A DNA stretch of 64,000 bases from Eledone cirrhosa. Taxonomy: Eukaryota. The notes under the pieces were generated by a model that was given only the letters and a program-made list of their open reading frames with translations, had not been told where the DNA came from and did no database searches. Where the stretch lies: assembly GCA_964016885.1 (NCBI GenBank), contig OZ024743.1, positions 144,832,001 to 144,896,000 of the forward strand. Reading direction: 5' to 3'. Each line of letters begins with the position of its first letter. Positions within the stretch are counted from its first letter, which is position 1. This document shows positions 88 to 45,860 of the stretch, piece after piece. A program made the position numbers and the translations under genes.

Positions 88-2725
88 ATGACACAGTCCT
101 TCCCCTATATACATAGATACACATACTTATATGTCGCTTCTCCATCCTCTCCTCAAACTCATCTCCCAATCATGCCGAATCTGAAATATTTCCTCCACCA
201 GCTTTATCCCACCCTCAATTGCATTCATTACTCCTTGCATCTCTCCAAACTTCTCTTCACTAAAACCTGCTATGACAGTCACGTCACTTTTCTTAGCTGA
301 TGTCTCCACCACCATCTCATTCCCCGAGGTTTCCGCTTCAACTTCCACTCCACTTCCTACTCAGCTCCCACCATTGAACCTCTCCTTACCCGCTCCTCTC
401 GCCATCTCATGCGGGTGACCCTCTCTCAAATCCGTTCTCTCGACCAAGATCTCCCCGAAGCCCACCTTCTTCTCTCCTCTACTTGCCACCTCCTCTGCGC
501 CCAATTCATCCTCCACCTCAATTTCTCACCGCCAAGAAAGAAAAATTTGTCCGCTCCGTCTGCCATCAACATACACCCACCTCACCCGCAGCCCTAACTC
601 TATTATCCCCTTGCCTACGATTCACTTTCTCATCGCTTCCACCTTCACTTCTCTCCCCATAACTGACTCCACACATGCCACCCCAGCCTCCACTAGTTTC
701 TCTCCCTCACGTACCTCCCATAGTGTTGTCACCCTACCTCCTGACCTATCACTATCCGAAACTGAGTGCTCCCTCCTCACCAGGGTTTTGTGCTTCATAC
801 CCACCACATCCACCTGCAATGAATTCCGAACAAGTACTGAGGTTGAACAAGTACTGAGGTCGCCTAAAACTAAAATACAAGCATTCTGCTACAGCACATC
901 ACCATCGGCTCAAACAGACTGCTTCACAAGCCTCAGTCGCCAACAGTCACAGTGGACGCTGAGCTCTGGGCAGTTCAGCACACTTGACATTTGTGGAAAC
1001 TTGCCGACGAATTTTGAACCACTTCAATTTCCGAAAACAATGTCGTCGTACCGACCTCACTCAGGCTGAACTCTCCGCTCTGCGCAGCCTACGGCATCGG
1101 AACGACATTACCCTCAAACCCGCTGATAAAGGTGGTGTGGCTCGCAGACCTATACAGGACGGAGGAGGCCCTCCGCCAGCTTCATAACACCCAATTTTAC
1201 CATTTGTTATCCTCTGACACCCACCCCAGACTACCAACAGCCCGTGTCCCCTACGATTCGCCAACTCATCTCCTCCTCTCTCCTACCACCTACTGCTACT
1301 AATCTTATACACACCACCTACTTCTTCCCCAAGATATTGGGGATATAATACATAAACCCGATGATTCCGGCCGCCCTATCGTTTCAGCCTGTAACTGCCC
1401 TAAAATAATTTCCCAATACGTTGATACCCTTCTCGCCTGCCTCGTAACGGGTCTCCCTTCCCACATCCATGACGCTAATCATACTCTTCGACTGTTTGAC
1501 CCCTTCCCTTTCACTTCTGGTCTCACTCGCCTTCTCTTTACCATGGTCATCAACTCTCTTTACACCGTCATCGCTCACGATGACGGCCTCCGTGCTTTCC
1601 GACATTATTTAGCCTTACACCCTACCCTAGTATTTCTACTCTTCTCTGCCTTACTGGACTCGTTCTCACTCTTAATGCTCTTCCCTTTTCCTGAGAGTTT
1701 TACCAACAGGTCTCTGGAGTAGCCATGGGTACAAGAAAGGGCCCTAACCATGCCAACTTGTTCGTAGGCTACGTTTAAGCCTTGATCTTCTCCCAGTACA
1801 CTGGTCCAACTCCTGAGAAATACGGTTGTTACATCGACGATAGTATCGGCGCCATCTTACTTCTCTGTGAAGAGCTCGACTCCTTTCTTTCTTTCGTCCA
1901 GTTTTTTCATCCGGCCCTCACTTTCACCACCTCCGTCTCCAAATCTTCAATCCAATTTCTTGATATCTCTCTATCGACCACACTCACCACACACTCTCTA
2001 CCTGCATCTTCTATAAGCTCAGTGATTCCCACTCCTACCTTGACTGCACCTCCTCCCATCCGAAACACATCAAACTCTCCATACTCAGCTCCCAATTCCT
2101 CCGGCTTCGTCGACTTTGTAGCCAGGACCACGATTTCGACCCAGTCCCAACACATAACCACACGCTTCATCCAGCGTGAATATCCCCAAACCCTGATCCA
2201 AGCTGTCCCCATCCGTGCTCGTGAAACTGATCGTCCCACAACCCTCTCACCCACCACTTCCTCCAACACCTGCCTCCCTTCCCCCTCACCTTCTACTCCA
2301 CCACCCTACCTATCTGCAACCTCCTGGCTTCGCGCACCAGGACTGAGCAGAGTCTGATTTTCCGTCTTGGGTCTAGTTTCCTTTATGGACTCAATTCCCC
2401 TCCCTAATTTCTTTAATATTGCGCACATACGCTCGCGCTTACTTCTATATCGATAGCCATTGTCACCCTACCTCCTCCGCTGTCACACATGCGCGAGCAC
2501 ATTCACCACCTAGGTCCCTTCCTATGGCTCTATTGCGGGCAGAAACACACACTCTTACAGCTTGTACAGACCAACAACAATACGCGCACACACTTCTACA
2601 CTTATCCTCATAGCTCTATACGGACCAACAACTAGCACACACGCACACACACCCTCATAAACTCATACACACATATCCTCAGAGCTTCGTTCATACAACA
2701 AAACATACGTGCGCACGCACGCAAT

Positions 2726-2756
<31 letters not shown>

Positions 2757-3191
2757 CTCTCTTTCTCACTCTCTCTCTCTCCCTAAACTTATATATACAC
2801 TCATATATCCTCTTAGTTTTGTACGGACAAATAAGAAACACACATACGCACGCGCGCACATACCAAACGATTTTTTTCCTTTGCAGCTAGACGCATTCGA
2901 TCACCGCCTTTTAAAACAAGATCAACTAATAGAACAATGCCAGAATCAACAGTTTTCTAAGAGATGGCGACTTGAATAGACCTGAATTTTTCTAATAAAT
3001 TTTTTTTTCGGTTCTGCTACTGCCCAAATTCCTCTAGCTTTCTATTTGATCTTTAAATTCTCATTTTATTTTCTGATGAGGGACAAGCGTCCGAAATATT
3101 AAGACCCCTTTTCTACCATATCAAGCGTAAAACTGATAATATATTTCTTCATTGTACTATATCGTTTGTTTTGTTATTTCTTTTTGCCTTT

Positions 3192-3193: not shown

Positions 3194-3244
<51 letters not shown>

Positions 3245-3432
3245 CTTTAGGTTTGTTGGTTCACCACTGGATAGAATTCCGTATGGTCAATCTTGGTGTA
3301 ATATTGTGGAGAGTACTCAACGTAGTGCAGTTCACCCGTCTTCGTTTGTGTAGTTGGTGGTGCGAATACGGAGTTAATTATAAATAAAAATAACAGGAGG
3401 TTGGACTGGTGTAAATCCTTGAAAGGTTTATT

Positions 3433-3490
3433 ATACTATGATCATTTCAATGACCGGGTTCCATATGAATCCGGTGATATCATCAGGTAT
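3433..3490 (-). ncRNA. Hammerhead ribozyme motif (family A, inverted pLTR)
   Basis: Reverse complement of the 4363-4420 motif. Confidence 0.85.
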
Positions 3491-3681
3491 TCGAAATATA
3501 ACAAAGGAATATGTAAAAACCATGGGTCCGAAAAATCAGAGACAGAGAGGACGCCTGGCCAACTAGCTGCCTTTCACCTCGGCCAGTCGCCCTCAAAGTG
3601 ATGGCTACTCGTTCTGCTGATGACCATCTGGTGAGGGGGCGAAGGCTTATAATGTACCTCTCCGTCAAAGAATAAAAAAGG

Positions 3682-3715
<34 letters not shown>

Positions 3716-3818
3716 AGAAAAAAGAAAGAAATCAGCGTAAGGGTCACACTACTGTCAAGCTAGAAAACGCCGCGAAAAATGTTATTCTAAAGAATCTATA
3801 TTTTAACAAAGGCATATA

Positions 3819-4002
3819 ATAATTGTTTCTACTTTTTGGCACAAGGCCAGCAATTACACAGGGCATTACTGGTACTTTATTTTATCGACCCCGTAAGGAT
3901 GAAAGGCTAAGTCAACCTCAGCGGGATTTGAACTCAGATCGTTAAGGGACGTAACTATGCTGGAAAGCATGGCATCCGACCCTCTACTGATACTGCCAAT
4001 CC
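3819..4002 (-). mobile_element. tRNA-head SINE with Nin/Deu-like core, inserted in the inverted arm of family A
   Basis: Minus strand: A-box-like tggcagtatcagtagag, B box gagttcaaatccc, core gcctttcatccttacggggtcgataaa. Absent from the homologous site near 5925-5950. Confidence 0.88.
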
Positions 4003-4362
4003 ATAATGGGTGTCTGTATGGTCTAATGTGTGAACAGAAAATTGGAACGTTAAACTTAAAATATAGATTCTTTAGAATAACATTTTTCGCGACGTTTTCT
4101 AGCTTGACAGTAGTGTGACCCTTACGCTGACTTCTTTCTTTTTTCATCTTTTCTTTCTTTCTTCCCCTTTTTTATTCTTTGGCGGACAGGTGGTAGTACA
4201 TTATAAGCCTTCGCCCCCTCACCAGATGGTCATCAGCAGAACGAGTAGCCATCACTTTGAGGGCGACTGGCCGAGGTGAAAGGCAGCTAGTTGGCCAGGC
4301 GTCCTCTCTGTCTCTGATTTTTCGGACCCATGGTTTTTACATATTCCTTTGTTATATTTCGA

Positions 4363-4420
4363 ATACCTGATGATATCACCGGATTCATATGGAACCCGGT
4401 CATTGAAATGATCATAGTAT
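4363..4420 (+). ncRNA. Hammerhead ribozyme motif (family A, upstream pLTR)
   Basis: atac CTGATGA tatc-accgg...ccggt-catt GAAA tgatca TA gtat. Stem I atac/gtat; palindromic ATGATCAT stem III; predicted cleavage after 4416. Confidence 0.87.
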
Positions 4421-5301
4421 AATAAACCTTTCAAGGATTTACACCAGTCCAGCCTCCTGTTATTTTTATTTATAATTAACTCCGTATTCGCACCACCAAC
4501 TACACAAACGAAGACGGGTGAACTGCACTACGTTGAGTACTCTCCACAATATTACACCAAGATTGACCATACGGAATTCTATCCAGTGGTGAACCAACAA
4601 ACCTAAAGAAATAATGCTCCAATAATGTTGAGAACTTCCAAATGTAATATTGAACAGTGGTACTGACTTCTGTGTACAGCTACCGCCAGCTTGGGATTAA
4701 TTGATCTGCTTACCATTCGGATTTTGGCTGCTCTGTGCTTTGTCTACCGCCCACCCGATGCTGCTTCCCTGTCGGGAATATTCGGATTCCGACAAAATTC
4801 TACGTATTATACTAAAACATGTATTGTATTGACTGAATTCTCTACTCTATACCTCAGGACTTCTTTTGTGACTCACACTGAATTTGGAGATCCGAACTTT
4901 ACACTAGGTACCACCTGTCACCATTCCATCTCTTCCATCCTCTATTATCTTACTACAACTTGATCTATATTGTATTTCTATTTTGCTCTGATTCCTCCGA
5001 TATGTTCTTATATACTTCCGTCTTACTACATCACTACCCTAGCTATGAAGACGTTTTAGTTATGTATTTTACTTTTTACTTTTATTAGTTTATTAATGTA
5101 TTTTTATCAATGTATTCTTTATCTTTGTATTTTATTTTTATGTAACTTTCCTTACTCAGGTCATTATGCACCTTTCATAGCCCCCTACCCACCAAAGAAA
5201 CACACTACTTATAACCCGGACTAACTGGGACTTTAAAATAATTATAGTCTATTTGCACCCTTTATCGGGTTTTGCTACCTTCGATTGATGTGGTGGCTTT
5301 T

Positions 5302-5430
5302 CCCGGCTGCGTGATGGGCGCTCGGAAAGTTCAGCCTTCCTTGAGTGCTTGGAAAAATAAATTTCCCCTCTTTCGGTAAACGAAATTACTTGGAGCGGCT
5401 TTCTTTGCCCCCGGCCCGCCGCGCCGCCTG
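5302..5430 (+). ncRNA. Unassigned structured RNA motif, copy X1 (three-way junction in a GC-rich stalk)
   Basis: ttgagt/acttgg closing the hairpins ggaaa-aataaa-tttcc and tttcg-gtaaa-cgaaa. Homolog at 30707-30838 (-). Confidence 0.6.
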
Positions 5431-5586
5431 TTTTGGCCGCCACATTATACTTATCCCTATAAACTCTAGGCTTAGGCATAACTGTTAGCTGTATCATGCC
5501 TCTACTGGCACGTAAATAAACCCCCCTCATGTGTGAATTAATAGTATTCGTTTGGTATTGACGATGGCCTGTCGAAATTGTAGACT

Positions 5587-5716
5587 TCCCGCTAGCACAC
5601 CCGGGGCCTAGGGTAGCTACGTTCCTAGAGTACTCGGAAAAATTAATTTCCATTTCTTTCGCTGGACGATACCACTCGAAACTGGCTGACACGTGGTTAG
5701 GAGGTGCTGGCTGGGA
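5587..5716 (+). ncRNA. Unassigned structured RNA motif, copy X2
   Basis: Stalk gctagcac/gtgctggc; gagt/actc closing ggaaa-aattaa-tttcc and tcg-ctgga-cga; extra hairpin ctgac/gttag. Homologs at 30433-30558 and 31157-31282 (-). Confidence 0.6.
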
Positions 5717-6034
5717 CTCACAATCGAATGTTTTAATCTTTACTATATCCAACCTGATATTTTATCGAGATTAACTTTTTCATATAAGACTCTCTCTGTA
5801 AGTTCATTAAATAATTTTTTTTTTTTCCCAATTTTAAATTTATTATTTTTTAATTTAATTTCATCCTATAACCCGTAACATAAGTTTAACGTTCCAATTT
5901 TCTGTTCACACGTTAGATCATACAGACACCAATTATATATGCCTTTGTTAAAATATAGATTCTTTAGAATAACATTTTTCGCGGCGTTTTCTAGCTTGAC
6001 AGGAGTGTGACCTTACGCTGACTTCTTTCTTTTT

Positions 6035-6090
<56 letters not shown>

Positions 6091-6282
6091 TTTTATTCTT
6101 TGACAGAGAGGTGGTAGTACATTATAAGCCTTCGCCCCCTCACCAGATGGTCATCAGCAGAACGAGTAGCCATCGTTTTGAGGGCGACTGGCCGAGGTGA
6201 AAGCAGCTAGTTGGCCAGGCGTCCTCTCTGTCTCTGATTTTTCGGACCCATGGTTTTTACATATTCCTTTGTTATATTTCGA

Positions 6283-6340
6283 ATACCTGATGATATCACC
6301 GGATTCATATGGAACCCGGTCATTGAAATGATCATAGTAT
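6283..6340 (+). ncRNA. Hammerhead ribozyme motif (family A, downstream pLTR)
   Basis: Identical to 4363-4420. Confidence 0.87.
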
Positions 6341-6380
6341 AATAAACCTTTCAAGGATTTACACCAGTCCAGCCTCCTGT

Positions 6381-6422
<42 letters not shown>

Positions 6423-6450
6423 ACATATATATATATATATATATATATAT

Positions 6451-7330
6451 AGGAACCAGTAAGACCCCGACAGCTGAGCTCAAGCCGTTTCGACGGCTAA
6501 TTCTGGACTAAATGAAAATTTATCCTGGTATTTAAATAGCCGATCTTCTCAAGGGGTAATTCCATATATGGTCAAAGTGATTGTCAAAAATCAGTAGTAA
6601 TTCTGTGGTTGCAAATTAGTAGGGGAGATGGTGGCTAAACCTGCCAGTAGGAGAAAGAGGGGAGGGGGTGGAGTAGACCCAATCAAGCGTTGGTAGTGCC
6701 AGCTACAGCTGGGCATGAGGTCAAAGAAGATACAGGGGAGGGGGAGGGGGAGGAAGTCGGAACGGTAGGTAGAACAATGGGGGGTAGAAATATATAGGAA
6801 AGAAAAAATACTGAGAGTGAAGAAAAGCAAATAAGTGTAAAGAAAAAAGTAAAGTAAATTAAATTCTACGACCTAGCTATTGTTAGGCTAGAATAAATAA
6901 ATAAATAAAGAAAGAAATAAGTAAAGAAAGAAATAAAGAAATAACGAAATAAGTAAAAGAACTAGGTGGGACGGAATAGGCAAGGACCCTTTTAAGAGGT
7001 ATAAGTACGTAAATGATACGGTGACGGGTCAACAAAAGGGGCCAAAATACTAAAGAGACTACCACGAAATAAGCAATAAAGGTTTCCATCCCGGGCACAA
7101 TGCCAGCAACCACCCAGTGCAGCAAAGTGAACTAGTACGAGATAATAATTCTGAGTCCCGAGAAAAATATATACTAATGCTAACTCTAAAAGATCTAAAA
7201 CAAGCTACAAGAAAGTTCGTACGAAGCAAAGGTAGAATACGGGAAAATAAATTCAGAATCCACCCCGCCCAAAAGAAAAGCGAGGAAAGAAATACTGAAA
7301 CGAAAAAATAAGGCATAAGTGCCACTAAGA
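6451..7330 (-). mobile_element. Non-coding pLTR/3' UTR segment of HHR family B
   Basis: Lies between (TA)n tracts. Its terminus is shared with the fold-backs at 7701, 16710, 29296 and 40457. Confidence 0.7.
6464..6557 (-). ncRNA. Hammerhead ribozyme, U3:A8 core variant, long stems II and III
   Basis: Minus strand: acccc TTGAGAA gatcggcta...tagccgtc GAAA cggct-tgagctc-agctg TC ggggt. Confidence 0.85.
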
Positions 7331-7332
7331 AA

Positions 7333-8844
<1,512 letters not shown>

Positions 8845-8907
8845 AATATTGAGTAAAATGACATGAGGCCGGACTGGTGAAATTCATTCAAAGATTTATT
8901 TCAGCAA

Positions 8908-8967
8908 AACACTATATACATTTCAGTGGCCAGGTTACGTAAGATCCTGGTGACATCATCAGATGTT
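8908..8967 (-). ncRNA. Hammerhead ribozyme motif in a family A-related pLTR fragment (about 8845-9118)
   Basis: Minus strand: aacat CTGATGA tgtca-ccagg...cctgg-ccact GAAA tgtata TA gtgtt. Confidence 0.8.
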
Positions 8968-9268
8968 TATTGCATAATAGTTATATAATAAAGGAATAAT
9001 GGTAAACACAATCCAAGAGGCTATAAGGAGAGAAAGTAGATTAAAAAAAAAACAGAAAAATGTTTTTGACTCGAAGGTGATCAATAGGGCCAGTTGTTGT
9101 CAGCTTGGCTGACCAGCAATATATATATATATATATATATATATACAGTATATATACATATATATATATATATGCGTGTGTGTAAAAGGTAAACAGAAAT
9201 AACAACACAATCGGTACAGTATATGGAAGGGATATATTAGGCTAACGCTTGATATAGCAGGGAGAGGG

Positions 9269-10420: not shown

Positions 10421-11249
10421 AAGAATGAGAAATTAAGAAGATTGAAGGGACAGATAGGGCGGAATCTGAAAAAATGTTTTTAGAGAAAAATAACAGGTCC
10501 ATTTATGTTGCTATCCCTTGGAAAACTGTTGATGCTGGCGTTTTGTGTGTGATATACTTAGAAAAGTGGATGGTGGAGCGCGTCTATCTAAAATAGAAAA
10601 TAAATTGTTTTACACATAGAGCTATACGTGTGTGCGCGCGCGCGCGTGTGTGAAGCAAGAGGATATTTGTGTGTATATGTAAGTAAAAGAGTGTGTGTGC
10701 TTGTAAGTACGAAGCTGTGAGCAAAAGTATGTTAATATATGGTAGTGTGTGTATGTGTGTGTGTGTGTGAACAGAGCTGTGAAGAGCAAAGTAGAGGTGT
10801 GTGTGCGTATTTTGTTGCTCTGTATCAGCAGCAAGAGTGTATGCTTCTGCCCATGAGAAAGCCATAGGAATCTAGGGGTGAATGTACAAGCGCGTGTGTG
10901 ACAACGACGAGGTAAACGTGACGGGGGGCACAAAGGGTAGAGAAGTAAGCACTAACGTAAATGTGTAATATTAAAAAAATTGAGGAGGGTAGTTAAGTTC
11001 ATCAGGGAAACAGGAACCGAGGCGGTAAATCAGACTATATATAATATATATATAGTAATAATAATAAAATTGAAGACTAAAATCCAAAGAGGGCTCGATA
11101 AGGAAAATATATATCAAATATATAAGAACCGTAGAGCAAATATTTATTAAAATAACAGATTAAAGTTTAAGCATAATCCGCGAAAAGCAGACAACAAACA
11201 GGATAAATTTGGATTTAAAACTTATAATAACCCTCCGTGGAACCCAGCA

Positions 11250-13172
11250 TTGCTACCCTTCGAAAATGATGTCTTGGAACTCATTCTGAATATCAAATTT
11301 CGGAATAGGAGCAATTCCTTCCAGCAAAACCTGAAGAATAGAATTCGTTCTATTAAGGATTCTAACGCCGTGCACGTCCATTCCGACAAAACTGGCAACC
11401 TATATCAAGTGGAGCGCAGTACTTACCATCAACTACTACATAATGCTGTAACTAAGGATTACCGTAAAACTAATCGGTGCGTCATCAATGAAATCAACGA
11501 TGCTGGGTTTAAAATCACATCTGATCTCAACATCCTGGACCGGACCGAACCTCTGGACCCTATCTCTCCCCACTTTACCATGAAGGATCACAAATCCAAT
11601 TTTTCGAACAACCCTTCTATTCGGCTTATTAACCCTACGAAGTCCGATTTAGGTAGGCTTAGTAAAACGATTCTTGATAGAATTATACCTGAAATTAGAA
11701 GTTTGGCCCCTCTCGCACTGTGGAACAATTCTTTCGCGGTGATTGATTGGTTCAACGGCATATGTAACAAGGAAGATTGCCGTTTTATCCAATTCGACAT
11801 CAACAATTACTACTCCTCCATCACTTTACCACTTCTCCTCAGAGCTATCAATTTCGCTAAAACACTCACAGTGGTTAAGGATTTTGAAGTTGATGTCATC
11901 CTTAAAGCCCGAAAGTCGGTGATTAATTTCGACGACTCTATTTGGATTAAAAAATCCAATAGTACCCCATTCGACGTGAGTATGGGCGCCAGTGACTCTG
12001 CGGAGGTTACTGATCTTATTGGCCTTTTCCTTCTTTTCTCTATCAAGGACGAATTCCCCAACGCGGGCGGTGGTTTGTACCGTGACGATGGTCTTTTGAC
12101 CATGACTAAGTGCGGACCTCGTGCTTGCGACAGGTTCAGAAAAGAACTCATAGCCTTCTTTAAAGGCTTCAACCTCTCTATACAGGTTGAGGCCAATCTC
12201 TCGGTCGTTAATTACCTCGACGTTACCCTCAATTTATTGAATGGGTTGTATTACCCGTATAGAAAGCCGAATGATACGCTTAATTACATAAGTAAGCATT
12301 CCAACCATCCTGCCAGCATAACCAAGAACCTGGTAAGAAACGTTTCGTTGAGGCTTTCCCGTCTTTCCACCAACGAGCGCATTTTCAACGGCCATTCCAC
12401 TTATTACAATGAAACTCTTGCTCGAAGTGGATTTGTCGATAAGGTAGCATATACAGTGTACGAAAATAGACCTAGAAGAAATAGATCTCGTCGCATTTGT
12501 TGGTTTAACCCACCATATAATATGGAGGTGGCCACACCATTAGCTAAGATCTTTCTTTCCCTTATTACGAAGCATTTTCCCCCTACACATAAATATAGTA
12601 ACATTTTTAATAGAAATACTATTAAAATTTCTTACTCTACGACTCCTAACCTTGCACATAACATCACAGCTTCAAATTTAGCTAAACTACCTAGCCGTAG
12701 GAACACGTGCAACCCTGTAGGTAGTACTAACTGTAATTGTAGGAATCGGGCTGATTGCCCCCTATCCGGGAAATGCCTCTCTAGTAACATTGTCTACAAA
12801 TGTAAGGTTGTAACACCCACGTCCCGTAGGGCCTACATACGGTTAACCGCCAATAGTTTCAAGCAGCGTCTTTACATGCATACCCATTCTTTTCGTTACC
12901 CTCTAAGAAGGAATATGACGTCACTTTCAGCTTATATCTGGAGTCTAAAAGACAACCACACCCAATATAAGTTACACTGGGAGATCCTAGCTAGGGCTAG
13001 ATCGTATAACGGAAATAAAAGACCATGTGACCTCTGCGCCGCTGAGGCCCTGGAAATACTCTACGCTACAGACCACATCTTAAACAAAAAATCTGAGGCA
13101 ATTTCGGCTTGTAAACATAAATTGCACAAAACTTTCCTGTATTACAGCCCCACGTTATACCCTAACGGATAG
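11250..13172 (+). CDS. PLE reverse transcriptase with C-terminal GIY-YIG endonuclease (N-terminally truncated; no ATG start)
   Basis: SDKTGNLY, IRLINPTKSDLG, QFDINNYYSSI, FDVSMGASDSAEVTDLIG, LYRDDGL, VNYLDVTLNL, SNHP, WFNPPY, CNCRNRADCPLSGKC, IVYKC..AYIRLT, CDLC, LNKKSE..CKH. PLE-like sequence continues in frame upstream to about 11175 (KFGFKT..PP). Confidence 0.93.
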   Translation: MLPFENDVLELILNIKFRNRSNSFQQNLKNRIRSIKDSNAVHVHSDKTGNLYQVERSTYHQLLHNAVTKDYRKTNRCVINEINDAGFKITSDLNILDRTEPLDPISPHFTMKDHKSNFSNNPSIRLINPTKSDLGRLSKTILDRIIPEIRSLAPLALWNNSFAVIDWFNGICNKEDCRFIQFDINNYYSSITLPLLLRAINFAKTLTVVKDFEVDVILKARKSVINFDDSIWIKKSNSTPFDVSMGASDSAEVTDLIGLFLLFSIKDEFPNAGGGLYRDDGLLTMTKCGPRACDRFRKELIAFFKGFNLSIQVEANLSVVNYLDVTLNLLNGLYYPYRKPNDTLNYISKHSNHPASITKNLVRNVSLRLSRLSTNERIFNGHSTYYNETLARSGFVDKVAYTVYENRPRRNRSRRICWFNPPYNMEVATPLAKIFLSLITKHFPPTHKYSNIFNRNTIKISYSTTPNLAHNITASNLAKLPSRRNTCNPVGSTNCNCRNRADCPLSGKCLSSNIVYKCKVVTPTSRRAYIRLTANSFKQRLYMHTHSFRYPLRRNMTSLSAYIWSLKDNHTQYKLHWEILARARSYNGNKRPCDLCAAEALEILYATDHILNKKSEAISACKHKLHKTFLYYSPTLYPNG

Positions 13173-13756
13173 CACGATCTATACGTGGATATTTTACGTC
13201 TTGATGTGGGAGCTAAGTATATGTTTTGTTTATTCCTTTACGTATTTGCATAGGTAAGTATATATTACCCGTATGTTTTGTGAAGGTATGTATACCTTCT
13301 CGTACGTATATTTGACTGTTATAGCGTATAATTTTTACATATTCTGGTATATAGGGTTTGGCTATGTGTATACGGGAGTTTTGCGTCCGCGTGAGTGTGC
13401 AGGTTCGTACGTATGGTGGGTGTGTGTGTATATGTGTACTTCTTGTTTTAGTTGACTTACGTCTCCGAACATTCGTGTATTTATATGTAGGTATGCGAGT
13501 GCGCTTGTTATATACGTATTTATTTACTTATATACGTTTATATAATTATTTATTTATTTGTACACAAGCATACACACACACACATATTTATATGTGCGTG
13601 GTTTTGTATACCCATGGTAAGGTTTTGCGTATGCTTGTGTATGTACGTATCTGTTTGCGTGTATGTATTTATTTGTTCCTATTACTTCTGTATTGTATTT
13701 ATTTACTTTGTTCTTAACTCTGTAGCGGAGATTCATTTGGTCTCCTAGTTAGAATT

Positions 13757-14025
13757 TTAGTCTACGATTTCTGCTATACCATTTACGTGGTTTTGTCTTT
13801 GCGTGCTATTGTTCTCCACGCTCCACATATGACTTATTATCTTCGTTTTTTCGTTCATTGCCAGAGAACGTCTCTATGCACCACCTAAGAGAACACTAGT
13901 CTACGACCTCTTTTATACCATAAACGTGGTTTTGTCTTTGCGCGTAATTGTTTTTCACCGCTCCTATTAATGACGTATTATTCGTTTTTTCCCGTTCTTT
14001 GCCAGCGAACGTTACCACGAACCAA
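13757..14025 (+). repeat. Diverged tandem duplication of about 140 bp in the PLE 3' UTR
   Basis: tagtctacga...tatacca...cgtggttttgtctttgcg...cgttc.ttgccag.gaacgt occurs twice. Confidence 0.85.
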
Positions 14026-14102
14026 AGTATCGTCTTCCTGTCTTCCTCCGGTTGCAACGTTTTTTGAAATATCCAGTTCTGCGTTTACAGATTGACTTTG
14101 TT

Positions 14103-14153
14103 AGTTTCAGAAGATCCCGTTAAGGGTGAAAGCAGCGATTCTTTGCTTAAACT
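14103..14153 (+). ncRNA. Variant hammerhead motif (core CAGAAGA, U4A)
   Basis: agttt CAGAAGA t-ccc-gttaa-ggg-t GAAA gca-gcgattctt-tgc TT aaact. Confidence 0.7.
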
Positions 14154-14423
14154 TTAATCTGTTATTTTAATAAATATAATATATATATATATATTTAATT
14201 AACATTTTATACAAAATCACTGACAGGTAGATTACTATAGAAGCATCTTTCCCTAGGGATAAAAAAAAGTTATCCTTACTGCAGTTTTAAAGTGTAAGAG
14301 AATAATAGATAGCCTTTCAATAGATTGATATGGCCATCGTTAACATAACGGATTTCTCTTCAGGGGATTTAATTCTATAAGGTATAAGAAAATAAAAGAT
14401 GTATATATATATATATATATATA

Positions 14424-15759: not shown

Positions 15760-16660
15760 ATAAGTTGACGGAACTAGCATAGGTATCACTGCTAGGACCG
15801 GTTACATCTCAGCGTACTCAATAGGTAATGTTAAATACACTCCCAGAGTATACACATAGTTATTCGCTTCAATACAACACCCGTAAACGGGTACCTTCAA
15901 TTGTTCCCGAACTCGAGTTTCGGCCACACTTACTGCAACAGTAGAGTGCACTGCACCCTCTGTCCGCATATATTATGCAACAATGCACAATCGGCGCATG
16001 TGGCTTCATCAGCGGGCTACGCCTAATCAATAACCAATCGATCGACAGAATTCGACTCCAGTCCGTGTCGGCTATGACTGTATGTGACGGCCAACACAGT
16101 AACATGTTGGTAACTAGAATCTCTCCGCGTCACAATGCTGTCTCCTGATTGGCTACCGATTTATAAATTTACGTGATGGCAGGAGACGAACAATTTAAAT
16201 AGTTCCGCCCCGCCATAAGCACTCAGCCCCAAACTCTCGAACACAAATTAACAAGTTCATGAAAAATTGGTTATTAGAGAAAATCAGTCTCCAATCGCTG
16301 TACAATAGAATGGGAGCATTCACCTCTAGTCTCCAAGTCCCATGGCGAGAAATGGTGCGATAGTAACAATGGTAGTGCCTAAAACCTTTACGGACATTAA
16401 ATGCCAACCGGGATTAAACAGCGATATAGAGTTAGCGCGTTGGTTGGAGTCTGAATTCTAGATATTTCGACCAACCACATGCGTAAACCGGTCTAGTTCA
16501 CAAGTTGTACGATTCAATAGGTGAGTGAGAGAGAAAATTTATAACAGGAATTAAAGCGTAGATTAAAACAAACCACAATAAAAAATGTCAAAAATTGTTC
16601 AACTTACTCTCATTGTTAATCTGGTAGTTGGGAGAAAATAATAATAAGTTGACGGAACTA

Positions 16661-16665
<5 letters not shown>
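15760..16665 (-). mobile_element. Retrozyme-like non-coding unit, 884-nt period with 22-bp terminal redundancy
   Basis: ataagttgacggaactagcata at 15760 and 16644; internal HHR; flanked by (TA)n. Confidence 0.8.
15906..16016 (-). ncRNA. Hammerhead ribozyme with a large insertion in stem II
   Basis: Minus strand: cccg CTGATGA a gccaca...tgtggc c GAAA ctcgag TT cggg; palindromic AACTCGAGTT. Confidence 0.82.
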
Positions 16666-16709
<44 letters not shown>

Positions 16710-16713
<4 letters not shown>

Positions 16714-16912
16714 AACGAGTAGGACCCCGACGGCTGAGCTCAGGCCGTTTCGACGGCTAATTCTGGACTAAATCATAGTCCAGAATTAGCCGTCGAAACG
16801 GCCTGAGCTCAGCCGTCGGGGTCCTACTCGTTCCTATTACCCACTCTACTACCCTAAGTATTGAGTACTTTGGTGCGTTATGGTCCACCTGGTTCCTTAC
16901 CACATTTCTTCC

Positions 16913-16913
<1 letters not shown>
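16710..16913. repeat. Fold-back of family B pLTR
   Basis: Same two ends as 7701-7893 but a different apex. Confidence 0.9.
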
Positions 16914-17506
<593 letters not shown>

Positions 17507-22721: not shown

Positions 22722-25019
22722 ATGTATGTGTGTCAGTGAGCGTGGTTGGCATCTAGTCTTAGTTTTCTATTATAATTCTAGCCACATGTAGAACTCTTTA
22801 TTAAATCGACCCTAGAACTTAACTGTTACTTTATCTGAAGGCTGAAAAGCAAGGTTAACCTTAGTGGGATTCGAACTCACAATGTAACGGTACATTCCTA
22901 AATACCGAAAATCATTTTGTTTGACGCTTTAAAGATTCTGACATTTGATTAGATATGTGAGTGCATAAAATACCTTTGGTAAACTAGAGTGAAGGTTCTA
23001 TAATTGTTGGAGATTTGTTTATGTCCATGAATAAAGATTCTATGATTATTTTTGGTATTTAAAATACTATCGTTGTTGTTTAGTCACGGGTCAGACATAA
23101 TTTAACAGACTTATGATCAAAGGCGTTCCAGTCATTATTAGTTTGACCTTTCAGATACAGTGTATCTACGCTAGATTTTTAAAATGTATCCTTTCTATAT
23201 TTGTTTAAAGATGATAAAGTACTATTAGATGGAGAATTTGCTGCTGCGATTTCTAGAAGATAGAGCGACCACACAGAGGTTTCCTTATTTATTTGTTTGC
23301 TATGCTGTGAAGTATTGAGATGTTGTTTGTAATATTTATTCTTTCTAAAGTAGTTTATTTGCGCAGATTTATGTTTGAGTAAGAGTTATCGGCGTGGATT
23401 TGTTGTAAAGATGTGGTTTCGGTAGCAAGGGTATCATGAAAGAGTATTATCATCTGGATGGACTATGGAGAGATGAAAAGTAATGACAACCTTGGCAAAT
23501 ATTAATGAGAGCGGCATCGGCATTCATAATATTACGCAACGACTCCGATACTCAATATTTCGGCCACAGTTACCACCATCGACGGCCAACTTTTGCAATG
23601 GAAACAGACAATCTACTGAATCATTTCAATTCGTCATTTGTAGTTACTGAATTAATATTGAAACTATGGAATCCTAAATCTGAACTTAGAATTAAATGCG
23701 TCGAAACTATATAAACATGGGTCACTGTATTGACTCATGCAGCGCCAGCATGCAAATGCGTATTCTAGTTAGTTATTCTAGTTAGTTAGATTTATATAAT
23801 AAAAGAAATAAAAACTTTCAGTTTCTCTGGATCAAGGTTTTCCTTCGTTATTCCACTAAGTGCATCTGCTTCCACAGACGCTCTCCGAACTCTTCCAAGT
23901 ACTAACATCACTTCGATCATATCTCTTCGTGCATCGAGGGAATATATTTCCTTGTTTTCTTCTATGATGTCATCACCCTCGAAAGACTTCAGTGTTCACA
24001 ACTTCCTCTGGCCCTTACTTTCATCCCACACTGTTACAGTAACTAAATCTTTCGTAAACTTCAACTCTCTACAACAATTAGTTTGATCCCTTTCACGCAT
24101 TGCTGATCGACCCACAGAATCTTGAAATACCCTTGGCCTCATAGTCATCTCCAAACCTATTTCTCTACTAGGGCAGTCGATCGACCTTTCCGTCAAATCG
24201 GACCGAGGAAACAATGTTTCCGCTGGTCTTTCCAATTGCTAATTGCGACTATCTATCTGTCGCAACTCAAGGTAGAAGGAGCAACGTGAAATAAAGTGTC
24301 TTGCTCAAGGACATAACTCATCGCTAAAGAATGATCATATCTGTACCAATCTAGTCTTCTGAGGAACTGGAATCATATGAATTCGAACAAACGAATTTCG
24401 GCGTCATAGGACACTCTCTCTTCCCATTGGTTAGTTGTGAGAACATTCCTCAGTCAAAAGTCTATAGAAATTTTTCTGAGGCAAGACTATATGTTATGGT
24501 TGTTTTTGTTAAGTACAGCTGACCTCCTCCATTGTGTTGGTAGTAGTAGGGGTGTTAGGGGGTCAGCTGGCAGGTCAGCTTTAGTTCGGCTGCTGCTATG
24601 TTTAGAAGAATTTGTGTGTGTGGGTTGGCATCTTCCTGCCACTATTTCACGTGTGGGGTGCCAAAAGATAAAAAAATAAGATAAATTAAAATAAGAAATA
24701 AAAAAAAAAATGAAAAAATAAAATGCGTGTCTGTTACAACCAATATCAAAGTTTGAAAGATTTGGAAAATATTGACTGAAGTAGAAAGGCTGTGTGTCAG
24801 AATCGAGAAGTGCAAAGGATTACAATCCTTACACTATCATGGGTGGTGCGTTTTAAGAGCAAATGAGACAAGAGTGGAGTGTAAAACACCAGAACCTGTG
24901 TGTCAAAATCCTGAAATGCAGAGGACCACAGTTCTTATTTCGGCATAAAGTACATATGCGTGTATGTCAACGCACATCGTTGCAAGCACACACGCACAAA
25001 CACAGGCTCAGGTGCATCT

Positions 25020-25086
<67 letters not shown>

Positions 25087-25209
25087 TATACACACACATA
25101 CACACACACATACATATATATATATACACACATATACAAACGCATGCACATACACACACATACACACACACACACATGTAAGTATCTATGTATGCACAAT
25201 CTTAAACAA

Positions 25210-27415
25210 CAGTATCTATGTATGGACATATGCATAAGTATGTGTTGCCATAGGAGTCGATCGAGGCATGGGTAGGGGTGGTGATTGTGTAGGGGGTGGT
25301 TTACCGTGGGCTCGGTGTGGCGGGGCTACTGTCCCTATAGCTTGAGGGAAGTTCCCATCCCAATGTGTTGTTATTGTCCATATAGCGTGAGGAAGGTCCC
25401 TTCCCTGAGGTGTCTACATGTCCCGAAGAAGTCAGTCCTGAGGTTTATTAGGCTGCTTCCACCGCTGAGTATCACAAGGGTCTCGCTCAGACATAGTTTG
25501 CAGATGCCAGATCCCCCTTTATCATTTGGTACTTTCCTGATTTTGGACCAGGCCAGAGACTACGGGCTCCTGTCCAGCTTGAGCTTCCAGATCAGTTCGG
25601 AAAGAGCCGTATTTTTTCTTTTGTCCTCTCTATTAAAGGAATGGCGATGGTTGTACCATCGGTCTTTAAAGCTCGTTGATGTGGCTTCTATGTAAAGGTG
25701 TTCAGAGTTGGGTGTTTTTACTCTACATCCGTATATTAAGTTCTTCCTTAGGCATTCATTACTAAGGGGGCATAATGCGGAGTTTCTGAAGTTGCAGGAG
25801 GTGGTCGACCCTCGAGTGCCTAGTGTGGAGTTGCCGTTGCGTATTATATGGTGGTCCTCGCCCGGGTCCGGTAGGTGGTCCCTGCGTCTGTTTGGGTTTC
25901 CAGGATGGGTACTGGGTCCACCCTTCCTTCCCTCCACATGGTTCTGCTGGGTGCTTATATTGCCAGCTTCTGGTAGTGTGTGGTTTTTAAGTTTACCCCT
26001 ATTGATGCTAGCTATGTGCTGGGCCACATTTCGCGTGGTAGAATACGAGAGCTTCACAGTGTGTCTTTTGAAGATCTTGTGGTATCTATGGTCCCTCGGG
26101 AAGCATTTATCTAGTGCTCTAAAGAATGAACGGGCCATGCTGTTCTTTAGGGCCGCTGAGTAGGGTGGATTGTACCACGTGATGTTTCTGCGTCTACTCC
26201 TATGTGGGTGGGTTGAGCGTGCCGTGGGCTGTTGGGGAGTTGTTGGGTTGCTAGTGGTTCCCGCATTGCTGCTTCTGCTTTGGGCGCTATGTGTTTTGCT
26301 AACTTCCCGGCCCATATCTGTGGAGTGGTTGTTGCCCACGCTGGGAGTTCTACAATGGGATGGTCCTCCATCAGTCCCGCTTCGTGTCTTGCGGTTGGGG
26401 GCGTCGGGCCCGGGGTGGTTAGTATCACCCCTGAGGCCGCTACTCGTACTGGGTTTCCTCCCATGGTTATGCGTACGCGTCTTCTTCTCTAATGTGGTGG
26501 TGTCGGGTTCATGGTGTTTAGTTGTTTCCACTCTGCCTGTACTGTTAGGGTCACCTCCCTCCCGGATACCGTGGGTCGGGGTATCCGATGGGCTATCCCT
26601 ATCATGGCGCCTCGGATTATATGATATATTTTGGCCATGCGCCGCCTTATTTAGAGCTGCGTTGTAATATTCTGCGTTGCTATCGAAGATCTTCTTATTG
26701 GCAGACAGGCTGGAGATCCTGTCCGAGACACTCTTCACTGTGGTTTGACTTGGCGTTAACATATACCAGTTTCTCGTTGGGATTGTGATAGGGGTAGTAT
26801 TGCTCGGTGTTCAGGTTTAGGGTGGTGTGTAGGAAGTTAACCACCTTTCTATTTGGGTCTAGCTCGATACTGAGCCCATGGTTCTTAAAGAAATGCCTAA
26901 TTTTCCTCTTCATTCTCTCCACCATAGTGGTGCTGTGGTCATAGACTGTGAAGAGAGCATCGTCACGATACAATCCGCCGCCCAGGCAGGGGATTTCTTC
27001 TTTTATCTGCTTCAGCAGGAAGATCCCAACCAGGTCCGTTACCTGTGCGTAGTCGCTGGGCCCATCATGATGTCAAAATTATTTGGCCAATCACTCATGG
27101 TCCAAAGGTTTCCACCAAAACGGATCAAGGTCTTTCGGGCGGCGTGGATGATGCCCACCTCCCAGAGGGTTAGGTCCGTTTGTTCGAATTCATATGATTC
27201 CAGTTCCTCAGAGAAATAACAACCCAACCAGGAGCTGGACATATCGGAGTATTGACGGAGTAAAACACTTCAACAACATGTGTACCTGTCTCTACCACAC
27301 CAATTCGGACTGCCTGAAGAGGTCACAGCCAATGATGGCTGTCACCGATATATATATAGCAGTACATCTTTAATAAACGAAGCCAAATTTTAAATATTTG
27401 ACTTAATTATTTTAA
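25210..27415 (-). mobile_element. Decayed GC-rich Hydra-clade-like PLE with inverted pLTR at the truncated 5' end
   Basis: LYRDDALF, VVNFLHTTLNL, RRRNITWYNPPYS, SCNFRNSALCPLSNEC, LIYGC..LYIEAT, ALSELIWKLK. RT motif A remnant near 27250-27280, then an opposite-strand HHR. Confidence 0.9.
27309..27363 (+). ncRNA. Hammerhead motif with GAAA changed to GATA
   Basis: actgc CTGAAGA ggt-c-acagcc-aatgat-ggctgt-c-acc GATA tatata TA gcagt. Confidence 0.75.
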
Positions 27416-29295: not shown

Positions 29296-29468
29296 AAACG
29301 AAGGAAGTGTGGTAAGGAACCAGATGGACCATAACGCACCAGAGTACTCAATACTTAGGGTAGTAGAGTGGGTAATAGGAAAATGTTTAACCCCGACGGC
29401 ATATTTCTGGTCCAGAAATAGCCGTCGAAACTGCTTCAGCTCTGCCGTCGGGGTTAAACATTTTCATA
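29296..29468. repeat. Fold-back of family B pLTR (subfamily variant)
   Basis: Tail, then aaaatgtttaaccccgacggca ... tgccgtcggggttaaacatttt. Confidence 0.85.
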
Positions 29469-29478
29469 TATATATATA

Positions 29479-31932
29479 TTTAGGTTTGAAGGTTCACCAC
29501 TGGATAGAGCTGGTCAATTCCGTGTGGTCAATCTTAATGGAGAGTACTCAACGTAAAGCAGTTCAACCGTCTTCGTTTTTGTAGTTGGTGGTGCTAGTAC
29601 GGAGTTAAATATTATAATAAAATGAGAGGAGGCTGGACTTGTGTAAATCCTTGAAAGGTTTATTATACTATGATCATTTCAATGACCGGGTTCCGTATGA
29701 ATCCGGTGATATCAGGTATTCGAAATATAATAAATGAATGTAATAGATAAAATCAATGGGGCTGAAAATCAAAGACCGGAGGACGACCGACCATCTAGCA
29801 TCTTCCACTTTAGCCGGTCGCCCTCAAGTGCTGGTTATTCGGTCTACTTGAGGCTATCTGGTGAGAGGGCTAAAGCTTATAGTGTGCTACTACCCTCCCG
29901 GTCAAATAGAATAAAAACAGAAAGCGAGAGGAAGATAAGTCATGCTACAAGAAAAAAGACAGAAAGAAGGGGGAAGAAAAGGAAGAAGAAGAAAAGTCAG
30001 CGTTAATGTCGAGCTACAAGAAGAAAGACAGAAAGAAAGAGGAAGAAAAGTCCGTACTAATGTCAAGCTACAGTCAGGCCAGGAATGGCGCGAAAAAAAT
30101 TTATTCTAAAGGACCCGTATCTTAACAGAGGTATATATTATAACAGAGGTAAATATAGTGGGGGTCTGCATGTTATAATGTGTGAGCAGAAGATTGGAAC
30201 GTTAAATCTTTGTTTAGATTTATAGGATGAAGTTACAAAAATTTAATATTTAATATTAACATTATAAAATTAAAGAAATTAGAAAATTGAAAATTAAACA
30301 GTTTAAAATTTTTAAGATTTTGGTTGCGAGGTTTAAGTAAAGAAAGAGTCTTTTATGAAGAAACTTAAAATATATTATAGAGTAAAAATTATGTCTTTAT
30401 TTAGCAGTCAAACAGCATGCGGCGACTGCAGGCTCCGGCCAGCCCATCCTAACCGCGTGTCAGCCATTCCGAGTAAGATCGCCTAGCAAAAGATATGGAA
30501 ATCAATTTTTCCAAGCACTCTAGGAATGTATAACAGGCTTCAGGTGCGCCAGTGGGAAGTCAGCCCTCATCGTTAGGCCATCCTTGTATCAAACCAGTAG
30601 TATTAATTTACCCAGGAGGGGGATTTGTTTAAGTAGAGGGAGTCGTGATACATCTAATAGTTATGATTAGTTCTATAATATAAAGGTACTATATGGCGGT
30701 CAAAAATCCGGCTGCGCGCCAGGCCCCTGGGGCGAATCATCCGCTCCGAGTAGTTTCATTTACCGAAAGGAGGGGAAATTTACTTTTCCAAGCACTCAAG
30801 GTAGGCCTATGCGCCAGGAGGCCGGTCCCGCCGCCAGGAAAACGAACCCAACAGTCCGACAGAAAATTGGAACGTTAAATTATTGTTTAGATTTATAGGA
30901 TGGAGTTAAAAAAATTAAAGATTAACATTATAAAATTAAAGAGTTAGACAATTGAGAATTAAACAATTAGAAAATTGAAAATTAAACAGTTTAAAACTTT
31001 TTTAAGGTTTGGGGTTGCGAGGTTTAGTTAAAGAGAGAGTCTTTTATGAAGAAACTTTAATTGTATTATAGAGATCCTCTATAAGTTATGCTAGTGGGAT
31101 GTAGAGTAAAGGATATGTCCTTGTTTAGCAATCAGACAGCATGTGGCAACTGCAGACCCCGGCCTGCCCATCCTAATCACATGTCAGCCATTCCAAGTGA
31201 GATCGCCTAGCGAAAGATATGGAAATCAATTATTCCAAGCACTCAAGGAATGTATTCCAGCCTTCGGGTGTGCTAGTGGGGAGTCATCCATCGTCGTTAT
31301 GCCGTCGTTATGCCAAACGAGTACTATACAGGAGAGTCCGGGTAATATGTATTTTTGTTCTCAGGGGGAGACATTCTAGTGTCGTGTGCTAATGGGTACA
31401 AGCGAGTAAAAGTCCGAATAAGAGGAGTAAAAAATACATGGATATATAGAAGTAGAATACGTGGAAAAAGCACATTAATAAAGCAAAGGTAGAAAGATAT
31501 AAATAAACAAACAAGAGTGGTGGTGGAGTAAAATGGAGAAATCAGAACACAGGAGAAATACAATATAGTTCAGGTTGCAGTATTTTTGTTCTCAGGGGGA
31601 GACATTCCAGTGTCGTGTGCTAATGGGTACAAGCGAGTAAAAGTCCGAATAAGAGGAGTAAAAAATACATGGATATATAGACGTAGAATACGTGGAAAAA
31701 GCACATAGAGGGAGGCGTGCTACATCTAATAGTTATGATTAGTTCTATAATTTAAAGGTACTATATGGCGGTCACCAGATAGCCTCAAGTAGACCGAATA
31801 GCCAGCACTTGAGGGCGACCGACTAAAGTGGAAGATGCTAGATGGTAGGTCGTCCTCCGGTCTTTGATTTTCAGCCCCATGGATTTTATCTATTACATTC
31901 ATTTATTATATTTCGAATACCTGATGATATCA
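29479..31932 (-). mobile_element. Rearranged family A subfamily copy (tail, broken HHR, X2, X1, second X2, internal duplication of 230 nt, terminal inversion)
   Basis: Homologous to 3246-3700 and 5290-5950. tatttttgttctcagggggagacatt at 31351 and 31581. About 31773-31932 is inverted relative to about 29705-29862. Confidence 0.85.
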
Positions 31933-31992
31933 CTAGCTGTATATTCTTAGCATAATTTCAAACCCGGAGCAACGCCGGGTAAATCTGCTAGT
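31933..31992 (+). mobile_element. Helitron-like 3' terminus
   Basis: Hairpin acccgg-agcaacg-ccgggt followed shortly by CTAG|T. Confidence 0.55.
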
Positions 31993-41673: not shown

Positions 41674-44600
41674 TAGGAGGTGAGTTTTATTGTAGTACAA
41701 TAAAGCAATGCAGATATCGGATAAGAAGCACTCTACAGTTTGTGGGACTGGAGTATGCATAATATAAAATCAAAAGATGGTTAAAGGAGTTCCATATATT
41801 TTATTATGCGCATTTCAAAAACAAACATCATCAAGCAATAATATTGTGTTTTCATCAGATAAAACAGGAGAACATGATATGAAGGCTAAAAAACACTTGT
41901 TGATAGTGCAGTTTTAAATCAACATATGAAAAGTGTGTTTAGATTGATGTGTGATATTGGGAAAAATATTTTATTTAGAGAGGGGGTGGGGGGGAGGATG
42001 AAAAGGAAGGAGATGAGAGGGAGAGATGGGTGATAGAGAGAAAAAGATAGTTTTTATAACTGAGATAGAGATATTTTTAACATAGAGGGGTTGAAAACCG
42101 TTGGAAGATACTGTATAAATTAAAATTTTGAAAATTAACGAAGGGAGGATATGTGCGAGGAAAAAATATTTTATTTAGGGAGGGGGTGGGGTGGAAAGGA
42201 TGAAAAAAAGGGGGGAGGAGATGAGAGTGAAGGTGGAGAGGGAGAGATGGGTGATTAGAGAGAAAGAGATAGTTTTTATAACTGAGAAAAAGATATTTGT
42301 TTTAATATAGAGAGGTTGGGAACCGTTGGAAGATAATGTATAAATTAAAGGATTTGAAATTAACGAAGGGAAATATGTATGAAGATAGAGAGAAAAAAAT
42401 AATATTGTGGGTGAATATTCTAACGTCAAAAGAAGAAATGTATGTATTGTGGCAATTTCAAAATTTAGCGAAGAGAAAAAATTGTTAAGGTTTGTGTGTA
42501 GAAGGATTTGAGAAAAATAATGTGAAGTTAAAGTTTGTATATTGAATTGATATGTATTAATAATGAGTTCGTTGATGGGGAGAAAAAAATAATAATAAAT
42601 TAAGGATGAAATTGAGATTAAAAAGATTTATGATAGAGAGAAAAAATAATAATGATTGCGGATGAATATTCAAAATGTCAAAAACAAATGTTATTATTTT
42701 ACGAGAAGATAGAATGAGGGTAATGAGTAAACGAGTATTATAGAGTGTATAATGCCCTTTAAAGTAAGGTAGATGGGTATATTTTAAAGAGGTGTATGTA
42801 TATGTGCCTTTGAGAAAAGATTCTAAATTGATAAAGAATTGAATATTAACTGTATACTTTTGAAAAGTTCTATGGAATTTATGCAGGCAGATAGAAAACA
42901 AATCTGAGCGTCTATTTATTATAGAATCTAGGTTAGAGATAATGGTAAATTTTTCATTTTAGGCAGAGATTACAGATTTTAGATAGAGAGCTGTTCAAGT
43001 ATGAGGATGCAGAAGAAATCTTTTTCCAAAAAGTGATGTTATATTTAATGTTTTTTGTCTTTTAAGGACCTTATGAGTTCTGAGAGAGCAGTGTTAGTTC
43101 TTTTAAGTTTGTATTTGAAAGATGAATGATGATTATAGAGACGAGCTTTAAAAGAGGTGGAAGTGGAGCCAAAATAGGTGAAGGAATTGGTGCTAGTTAT
43201 AATTTTACATTCATAAATTAAGTTTTTATCGAGGCAATGGGTTGTTGAGAGGACATTTATTTTAATGCGGCAGTTGCAATTAGAGAGATTATTAATGAGT
43301 GATCTAGTGTTATCTATAGAAGGAATTGGATTGGAGAAGTGTTTGCGATAGGAATAATAGGAATAATAGTTCTTGATTTAGAGTTGGATTATGAACATTT
43401 AGCGAAGTTGTGTTTGACGTTGTATTTGGGTTACAGAAGTTAGCCTAGGGTTTACAATGACGTCGGGAGTACTATTACTGTTATTATGAAATTCAATATT
43501 GGAAGGAAGAGATTTAGTATTTAATATTTTGTTGTTGTGTTTAGAGATGATGTTGGAAATATTGGAGGATGTAGAATACGAAAATTTGATGGTGTCTTTG
43601 TTAAATATTTTACTATAGATATGTGAGGGAGGGAAGCATTTATTTAAGGCACTAAAAAATAATTAGGAATATTGTTATTAATAGAGATGGAGAAAGGAGC
43701 ATTATACCAGATTATGTTTTTGTATCTAGGTCTTTTATTAAAATTATTGAATGGTCATGATTAATTATTCTACTGTAAGTTTTCCTAGAATTTGTTTCTT
43801 TATTATATTTGATTTTATCTGGATAGCCGGCTTTAGAAAGTGCGTTATTATAGTAATTGGCGTTAGCATCAAAGATGTTTTTATTAGAAGATATGTTAGA
43901 TATTCTATTTCCAATATTATTAACTATAGCATTAAAAATATATGTCCTCTCAACAACCATTGCCTCGATAAAACTTAATTTATGAATGTAAAATTATAAC
44001 TAGCACCAATTCTTCACCTATTTTGGCTCCACTTCCACCTCTTTTAAAGCTCGTCTCTATAATCATCATTCATCTTTCAAATACAAACTTAAAAGAACTA
44101 ACACTGCTCTCTCAGAACTCATATGGTCCTTAAAAGACAAAAACATTAAATATAACATCTTTTGGAAAAAGATTTCTTCTGCATCCTCATACTTGAACAG
44201 CTCTCTATCTAAAATCTGTAATCTCTGCCTAAATAAAAAATTTACCATTATCTCTAACCTAGATTCTATAATAAATAGACGCTCAGATTTGTTTTCTATC
44301 TGCCTGCATAAATTCCATAGAACTTTTCACAAAGTATACAGTTAATATTCAATTCTTTATCAATTTAGAAATCTTTCTCAAAGGCACATATACATACACC
44401 TCTTTAAAATATACCCATCTACCTTACTTTAAAGGGCATTATACACTCTATAATACTCGTTTACTCATTACCTCATTCTATCTTCTCGTAAAATAATAAC
44501 ATTTGTTTTTGACATTTTGAATATTCATCCGCAATCATTATTATTTTTTCTCTCTATCATAAATCTTTTAATCTCAATTTCATCCTTAATTTATTATTAT

Positions 44601-45660: not shown

Positions 45661-45860
45661 NNNNNNNNNNNNNNNNNNNNNNNNNNNNNNNNNNNNNNNN
45701 NNNNNNNNNNNNNNNNNNNNNNNNNNNNNNNNNNNNNNNNNNNNNNNNNNNNNNNNNNNNNNNNNNNNNNNNNNNNNNNNNNNNNNNNNNNNNNNNNNNN
45801 NNNNNNNNNNNNNNNNNNNNNNNNNNNNNNNNNNNNNNNNNNNNNNNNNNNNNNNNNNNN
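45661..45860. other. Assembly gap (200 N)
   Basis: Run of N. Confidence 1.

Follow-up and report, generated by a model that had tools for sequence, protein, structure and literature searches.

The element at positions 3241-6394 of the window (the whole stretch of 64,000 nucleotides of Eledone cirrhosa DNA analysed here) is a member of a dispersed, high-copy and protein-free family, family A, with a unit of ~1.94 kb and two fixed end sites. It is probably a Penelope-like element (PLE) copied in trans by a Hydra-clade RT/endonuclease into (TA)n, likely from a ring-like template. New are its size, its abundance in an animal, a conserved body of its own and ends whose signals indicate the Hydra clade.

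Layout of the copy and extent of the family

The copy consists of a partial tandem and an inverted arm (Table 1). As originally noted, two identical hammerhead-like cores, at 4367 (+) and 6287 (+), lie 1920 nt apart in direct repeats, and a third identical core is found in the opposite orientation. The direct arm runs from 4056 to 6394. The inverted arm (3241-4058) starts with the tail, and in a self-comparison 3241-3657 pairs with 4196-4612 over 417 nt; (TA)n is present on either side of the insertion. An upstream inverted pLTR with tail, (TA)n flanks and PLE architecture had all been proposed for this copy, and all were recovered: the partial tandem yielding pLTRs, the additional inverted and 5'-truncated arm, the one-sided tail and the hammerhead motif within the pLTR are those of EN+ PLEs. 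The direct repeats represent the usual pLTR that a partial tandem produces and do not make up a retrozyme array.

Table 1. Features of the copy and of related elements, in window coordinates
Positions	Strand	Feature
3196-3240	none	(TA)n target, left
3241-3378	-	Tail of the inverted arm; arm end is site II
3379-4058	-	pLTR arm, inverted, 5'-truncated; hammerhead core starts at 3486 (-)
3817-4003	none	Later insertion of an abundant short dispersed repeat, with 5-nt duplication; outside the family unit
4056-4474	+	5' pLTR (direct repeat), second round of the unit, 5'-truncated
4362-4420	+	Minimal type I hammerhead motif in which helix III is palindromic; cut predicted at 4416/4417
4475-4613	+	Tail segment, from end site I (4474) to end site II (~4613); 145 nt in the consensus
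4614-4634	+	CTCC-N-GTYGAG end motif, common to autonomous Hydra-clade PLEs; one change directly after the motif here
4614-5947	+	Body, non-coding
5328-5402	+	First copy of the conserved cargo motif; may form a three-way junction or act as a promoter element
5615-5694	+	Conserved cargo motif, copy 2
5948-6394	+	3' pLTR (direct repeat), end is site I; core at 6287, predicted cut 6336/6337
6395-6450	none	(TA)n target, right
7388-7439	-	Short relative, site I junction only
8845-9115	-	Sister family B, truncated copy; 2392 first-look family B candidates in the genome
11151-13172	+	Autonomous-type Hydra-clade PLE ORF, 5'-truncated; example of the helper clade, not a matched helper
29466-31933	-	Two-armed insertion of a diverged subfamily with three copies of the cargo motif; hammerhead core broken

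Insertions of ~170-190 nt were observed at one spot of the family A unit (consensus ~1508-1512) in several copies, at window 3817-4003 and in L033, L037 and L143, and the short repeat inserted in L033 and L037 is the same as that in the window; the shared position suggests a preferred target. In L176 such an insertion sits at site II. A family of short palindromic repeats recurrently adjoins (TA)n runs (window 6450-6540, 7700-7890 and 16660-16970), and the window holds a run of ~200 N at 45661-45860.

In the host genome of ~3.0 Gb, a first look gave 1608 candidates for the body and 2094 for the pLTR, and exact patterns matched 5,348 times for the hammerhead, 5,111 times for the segment following the cut and 507 times for the cargo motif, with no match for the controls. 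The 19 best other copies of the body have at least 1166 of 1261 bases covered at 88-92% identity. A consensus unit of 1943 nt was built from 20 full-body copies, each of which departs from it by 1.8-4.9%. The superfamily is dispersed, with 5'-truncated copies, and comprises subfamilies that are 65-85% alike and have units of ~1.7-3.1 kb; hammerheads of family A are spaced 1680-2089 nt apart, those of its relatives 1696-3102 nt (a pair 2967 nt apart in L177 was dropped, as it joins two separate insertions). In the window, the diverged subfamily first placed at 29479-31932 was found at 29466-31933, where the hammerhead core carries a 3-nt deletion, and the relatives expected near 7366 and 8845 were located at 7388-7439 and 8855-8962.

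The absence of RT/EN coding claimed for the window copy was upheld: the best tblastn match to 151 Hydra-type proteins and two other PLE-like stretches had E = 0.15, and an HMM search for RT/EN gave nothing significant (a control PLE stretch scored 1e-80). None of the eight units tested held a PLE coding remnant, Pfam on 11 frames gave one match, below cut-off and without relevance, and the longest open frame in the doubled consensus is 97 aa. The RT plus GIY-YIG ORF of an autonomous PLE is thus absent, and the family has been amplified as a non-coding unit, as non-autonomous PLEs are. Thirty loci with the cargo motif represent several subfamilies, and none of them contains a PLE ORF within the element. 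Where a copy seemed to be fused to a PLE ORF (L002, L167, L178), the two are joined through (TA)n, and these cases were dismissed as nested insertions; L136 and L151, read in part, look the same. RNA-editing scars showed no excess (A>G 11.8 vs T>C 11.6 per 1000). Contigs from two sequencing runs agree with a repeated sequence and carry no information on expression.

We found no description of the family in the main texts of the open-access papers searched, and supplementary lists may include similar elements.

End sites and the probable helper clade

The arms stop at either of two fixed sites, 145 nt apart, and are followed by (TA)n. Among 25 two-armed insertions whose outer ends could both be read, 24 have one arm that stops at site I and one that stops at site II, so that the tail is present at one end only, as in EN+ PLEs; L010, L011 and L134, which are cut or rearranged, were excluded from this tally. 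The two-site ends are the PLE tail signature, which has been traced to two internal starts of reverse transcription (PMC11167929).

Just 3' of site II lies the motif CTCC-N-GTYGAG, found in family A and in six autonomous Hydra-clade PLE families of the same genome, with nine invariant columns in an alignment of three family copies and the six Hydra families. In its strict form it is present in 16 of 29 run-on rows (four of the 29 are not true run-ons) vs none in 323,836 background bases. Two-site ends of this kind occur in six of seven Hydra-clade families, whose tails measure 87-176 nt and which have CTCC or CTCT a few bases behind each end; this survey includes only 1-7 ends per site except for P0001, and the seventh family is unclear. 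The end region aligns to two Hydra families with longer ORFs (z 4.2 and 4.4, 0 of 200 shuffles), while three of the seven gave no signal (z -0.7 to 1.1) and two a weak one (z ~2). Because the site II end motif is common to autonomous Hydra-clade families, we infer that the element is likely a non-autonomous PLE moved by an enzyme of this clade, an assignment at the level of the clade and not of a specific family.

The helper search and motif survey covered Hydra-clade PLEs in depth. Blastn of the consensus against 65 Hydra loci matched only nested family copies, against 52 further Hydra loci nothing, and four Hydra protein queries and the copies obtained from them gave no matched ends; nor is the P0001 family, which has a copy in the window, the matched helper of family A. 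In a rotifer, pLTR sequences alone are described as enough for insertion in trans (PMC3846280). Marks given for the Hydra clade, namely DKT, RW and CxCX5C (PMC8557442), are present in the ORF at 11151-13172. A young, abundant Hydra-clade family, represented by window 11040-14180 and L111 (150 of 150 scored matches at 97-100%), has ORFs of up to ~713 aa, a unit of 3258 nt, a tail of 87 nt and a hammerhead core altered at the fourth position. Decayed elements are also seen in the window: PLE-like ones at 850-3180 (with a compact hammerhead at 3073) and 24450-27200 (a Hydra-type fragment), and a two-armed Hydra-type copy at 41800-45400 with hammerheads at 41858 (-) and 45328 (+).

By analogy with the Poseidon PLE PAc (PMC11167929), the enzyme would bind the motif just 3' of each end site, nick both strands of (TA)n and start one cDNA per end site. 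Each arm would then extend back until truncation, and arms longer than one unit would give the direct pLTR and two hammerheads. The template may be a circle closed at the hammerhead cut, which we put at slightly below an even chance.

The hammerhead and the nature of the template

When 14 hammerhead copies of several subfamilies are aligned, compensatory changes are seen in the palindrome of helix III as well as in helices I and II. Of the stem cells in the alignment, 89.9% are paired (0 of 500 shuffles as high; slid controls at most 38%), and 19 cells carry double changes vs 8.4 in shuffles (0 of 500), a control that ignores the relatedness of the copies. The pattern indicates that the hammerhead fold is under selection. 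The motif conforms to the minimal, dimer-type hammerheads of animal PLEs (PMC4209133), the U.U next to its core aside: this is invariant and occupies the position of G10.1-C11.1, described there as conserved. Compared with that account, the ribozyme, with a short helix I, a long bulged helix II and the U.U, is not a canonical type I hammerhead. When the window was scanned with Rfam, neither a hammerhead (E up to 1) nor any other relevant family was matched. Both cores are intact in 4 of 20 full-body copies, and two whole hammerheads are carried by 7 of the 20. Judged by eye, helix II of the hammerhead seems to hold a very long insert in several Hydra families (L229, L235, L240, L242); the core is U3-A8 in two of them, and in most a U.U adjoins it.

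A simple linear transcript of an inserted copy would be primed at site II only at the inner junction and would give short stubs. Short stubs are indeed the commonest insertions, and long tailed arms also exist, for example in L306 (436 + 1943 + 145 nt). Some regeneration step is needed, because none of the inserted copies examined extends as far as the site II motif. Four routes could yield full tailed arms: a ring, a jump from one cut end to the other, strand transfer between pLTRs, or sources of several units. The loci and rows sampled, whose flanks were often 1.5 kb, included no source of the last kind. Since a plain linear transcript of the copies seen cannot yield long tailed arms, a ring is a fair inference, although homology-based transfer between pLTRs gives identical DNA and the two cannot be separated at this level. 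The repeats of one insertion have 38% of their derived changes in common when direct (11 pairs) and 46% when inverted (21 pairs), compared with 8% between insertions, which suggests many source copies unless gene conversion, which could be a partial cause, explains it.

Among the first 100 of the 5,111 post-cut matches, the 5' ends of arms show no accumulation at the cut: two lie within 2 nt of it and six stop 15-34 nt upstream, 34 of the 100 having been judged by coordinate match to hammerhead-pattern matches. Because of this and of the 7 of 20 full-body copies with two whole hammerheads, use of the cut linear monomer without rejoining is disfavoured. In four of the 100 rows (L255, L278, L286, L288) the truncation points of the arms fall no more than 3 nt apart, in the loop of helix II, possibly a stall site of the reverse transcriptase.

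The strongest alternative, to which we give appreciable weight though rather less than an even chance, is that the same non-autonomous PLE is copied from an uncut linear RNA, with units regenerated by pLTR strand transfer or rare multi-unit loci and a hammerhead that acts late or is idle. The lack of a pile-up at the cut is in keeping with it, as are an altered hammerhead core in one abundant Hydra family of this genome, the poor cutting described for minimal hammerheads (PMC4209133), and PAc, the single PLE with an in vitro reconstitution, for which PMC11167929 reports that cleavage is dispensable, cleavage-dead mutants still inserting in vitro, and that no RNA ends were seen at the cut site. 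On the other hand, stems and palindrome keep compensatory changes across subfamilies, no examined locus has two run-on junctions on one strand, the first 100 of the 5,348 hammerhead matches include no three same-strand hammerheads in a row, and the 5' ends of long arms are scattered.

The body carries the cargo motif of 75-80 nt, with two occurrences in family A and three in the 29466-31933 copy; it is absent from 96 Hydra loci, two nested family copies aside. The claim of a structured cargo stands as far as a duplicated, conserved motif is concerned; its structure did not hold up, covariation and folding energy being at chance. The motif can be drawn as a three-way junction, with mostly invariant stems, but pairing is equally good in 283 of 500 shuffles, and RNAalifold gives a covariation term of 0.06. 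The whole unit folds no better than shuffles (circular -406 kcal/mol vs -387 to -408 in eight shuffles), and no 150-nt window of it passes z -1.6. The motif is possibly a promoter or an RNA element. A more far-reaching reading, which we offer as tentative, is a long-lived radiation of protein-free RNA rings of 1.7-3.1 kb that parasitise Hydra-clade PLE enzymes, cut and closed by the hammerhead, with two enzyme-docking hairpins that set two copying starts and a duplicated module of their own.

Relation to retrozymes and other PLEs

The class originally proposed, a giant retrozyme that cleaves itself twice, yields abundant linear and circular 1.9-kb RNAs and carries its own structured cargo, was not established and is improbable. 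The body does have an intact core on each side in this copy and in 4 of 20 full-body copies, subfamilies have the cargo motif in conserved form (507 exact matches), and PLE ends have been proposed as the source of animal retrozymes (preprint 10.64898/2026.07.22.740005). Against this, only those few copies keep both cores, the copies are dispersed and 5'-truncated, the ribozyme is of the minimal PLE type, no pile-up occurs at the cut, the circular fold lies within the range of the shuffles with no 150-nt window standing out, and covariation of the cargo stems is not above shuffles. Retrozymes form short head-to-tail arrays that range from dimers to multimers; the longest arms among the rows and loci examined reach ~1.5 units, and no three-unit run was found. 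The architecture is that of a non-autonomous PLE as in Chlamydomonas; arrays and a canonical ribozyme, both marks of retrozymes, were not found.

A plain internal deletion of one autonomous PLE is very unlikely, because no PLE coding remnant was found in the eight units tested and the subfamilies are diverse: the ends are of PLE type, and the site II motif has the place that it has in autonomous families, ahead of the start codon, but no parent was found among the Hydra loci checked, and the body is common to many copies, diversified into subfamilies 65-85% alike with units of ~1.7-3.1 kb, which is a non-coding, high-copy family and not a few-copy deletion.

Animal non-LTR retrozymes resemble family A in being non-coding, in having one type I hammerhead per unit and in their proposed mobilisation by PLEs (PMC7229834; preprint 10.64898/2026.07.22.740005). 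They differ in size, the units here being 1.7-3.1 kb and the retrozyme consensus 51-972 bp in the preprint (with a tandem-repeat finder set to 1000), while circles of 150 to over 1000 nt are described in PMC7229834; in contrast to them, family A forms dispersed partial tandems, has a minimal atypical ribozyme and is known here from DNA alone. Nonautonomous PLEs of Chlamydomonas, such as MRC1 and other Chlamys elements, are likewise non-coding, pLTR-forming and dependent on autonomous PLEs, but, as described, mostly without a hammerhead (PMC8557442; PMC9940879), whereas family A has an animal host, Hydra-clade signals and a hammerhead; our PLE comparison found no extended 3' similarity of family A to a known autonomous family. 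With the Hydra clade of C-terminal EN+ PLEs (PMC8557442) family A shares (TA)n targets, the pLTR hammerhead, the inverted arm and the one-sided tail, and with the Hydra families of the same genome the end motif. In contrast to them it has no ORF, and its duplicated cargo motif was not found in Hydra loci. Its tail of 145 nt exceeds the 30-40 bp quoted for PLEs (PMC8557442) and falls within the range of the Hydra families here (87-176 nt). PAc, from Anolis, is similar in its two internal start sites bounding the tail, in its AT-rich targets and in needing sequence 3' of the start site, as the family A model does; it is autonomous, of another clade and has its signal within the ORF, whereas family A is non-coding (PMC11167929).

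As described in PMC8557442 and PMC11167929, the origin of greater-than-unit PLE copies and the role of their hammerheads are still unsettled in the field. A passenger that keeps only a hammerhead, two short end motifs and a cargo module may hint at what the enzyme needs in cis, and family A RNA together with a Hydra-clade protein with intact ORFs constitutes a ready substrate pair in one genome. Elements of this kind would escape repeat searches limited to a period near 1 kb. The ring, if true, would be a genome-encoded ribozyme circle much larger than the animal retrozymes measured so far; if the radiation of RNA rings is true, it would bridge small retrozymes and full PLEs, and rings would be the normal PLE template.
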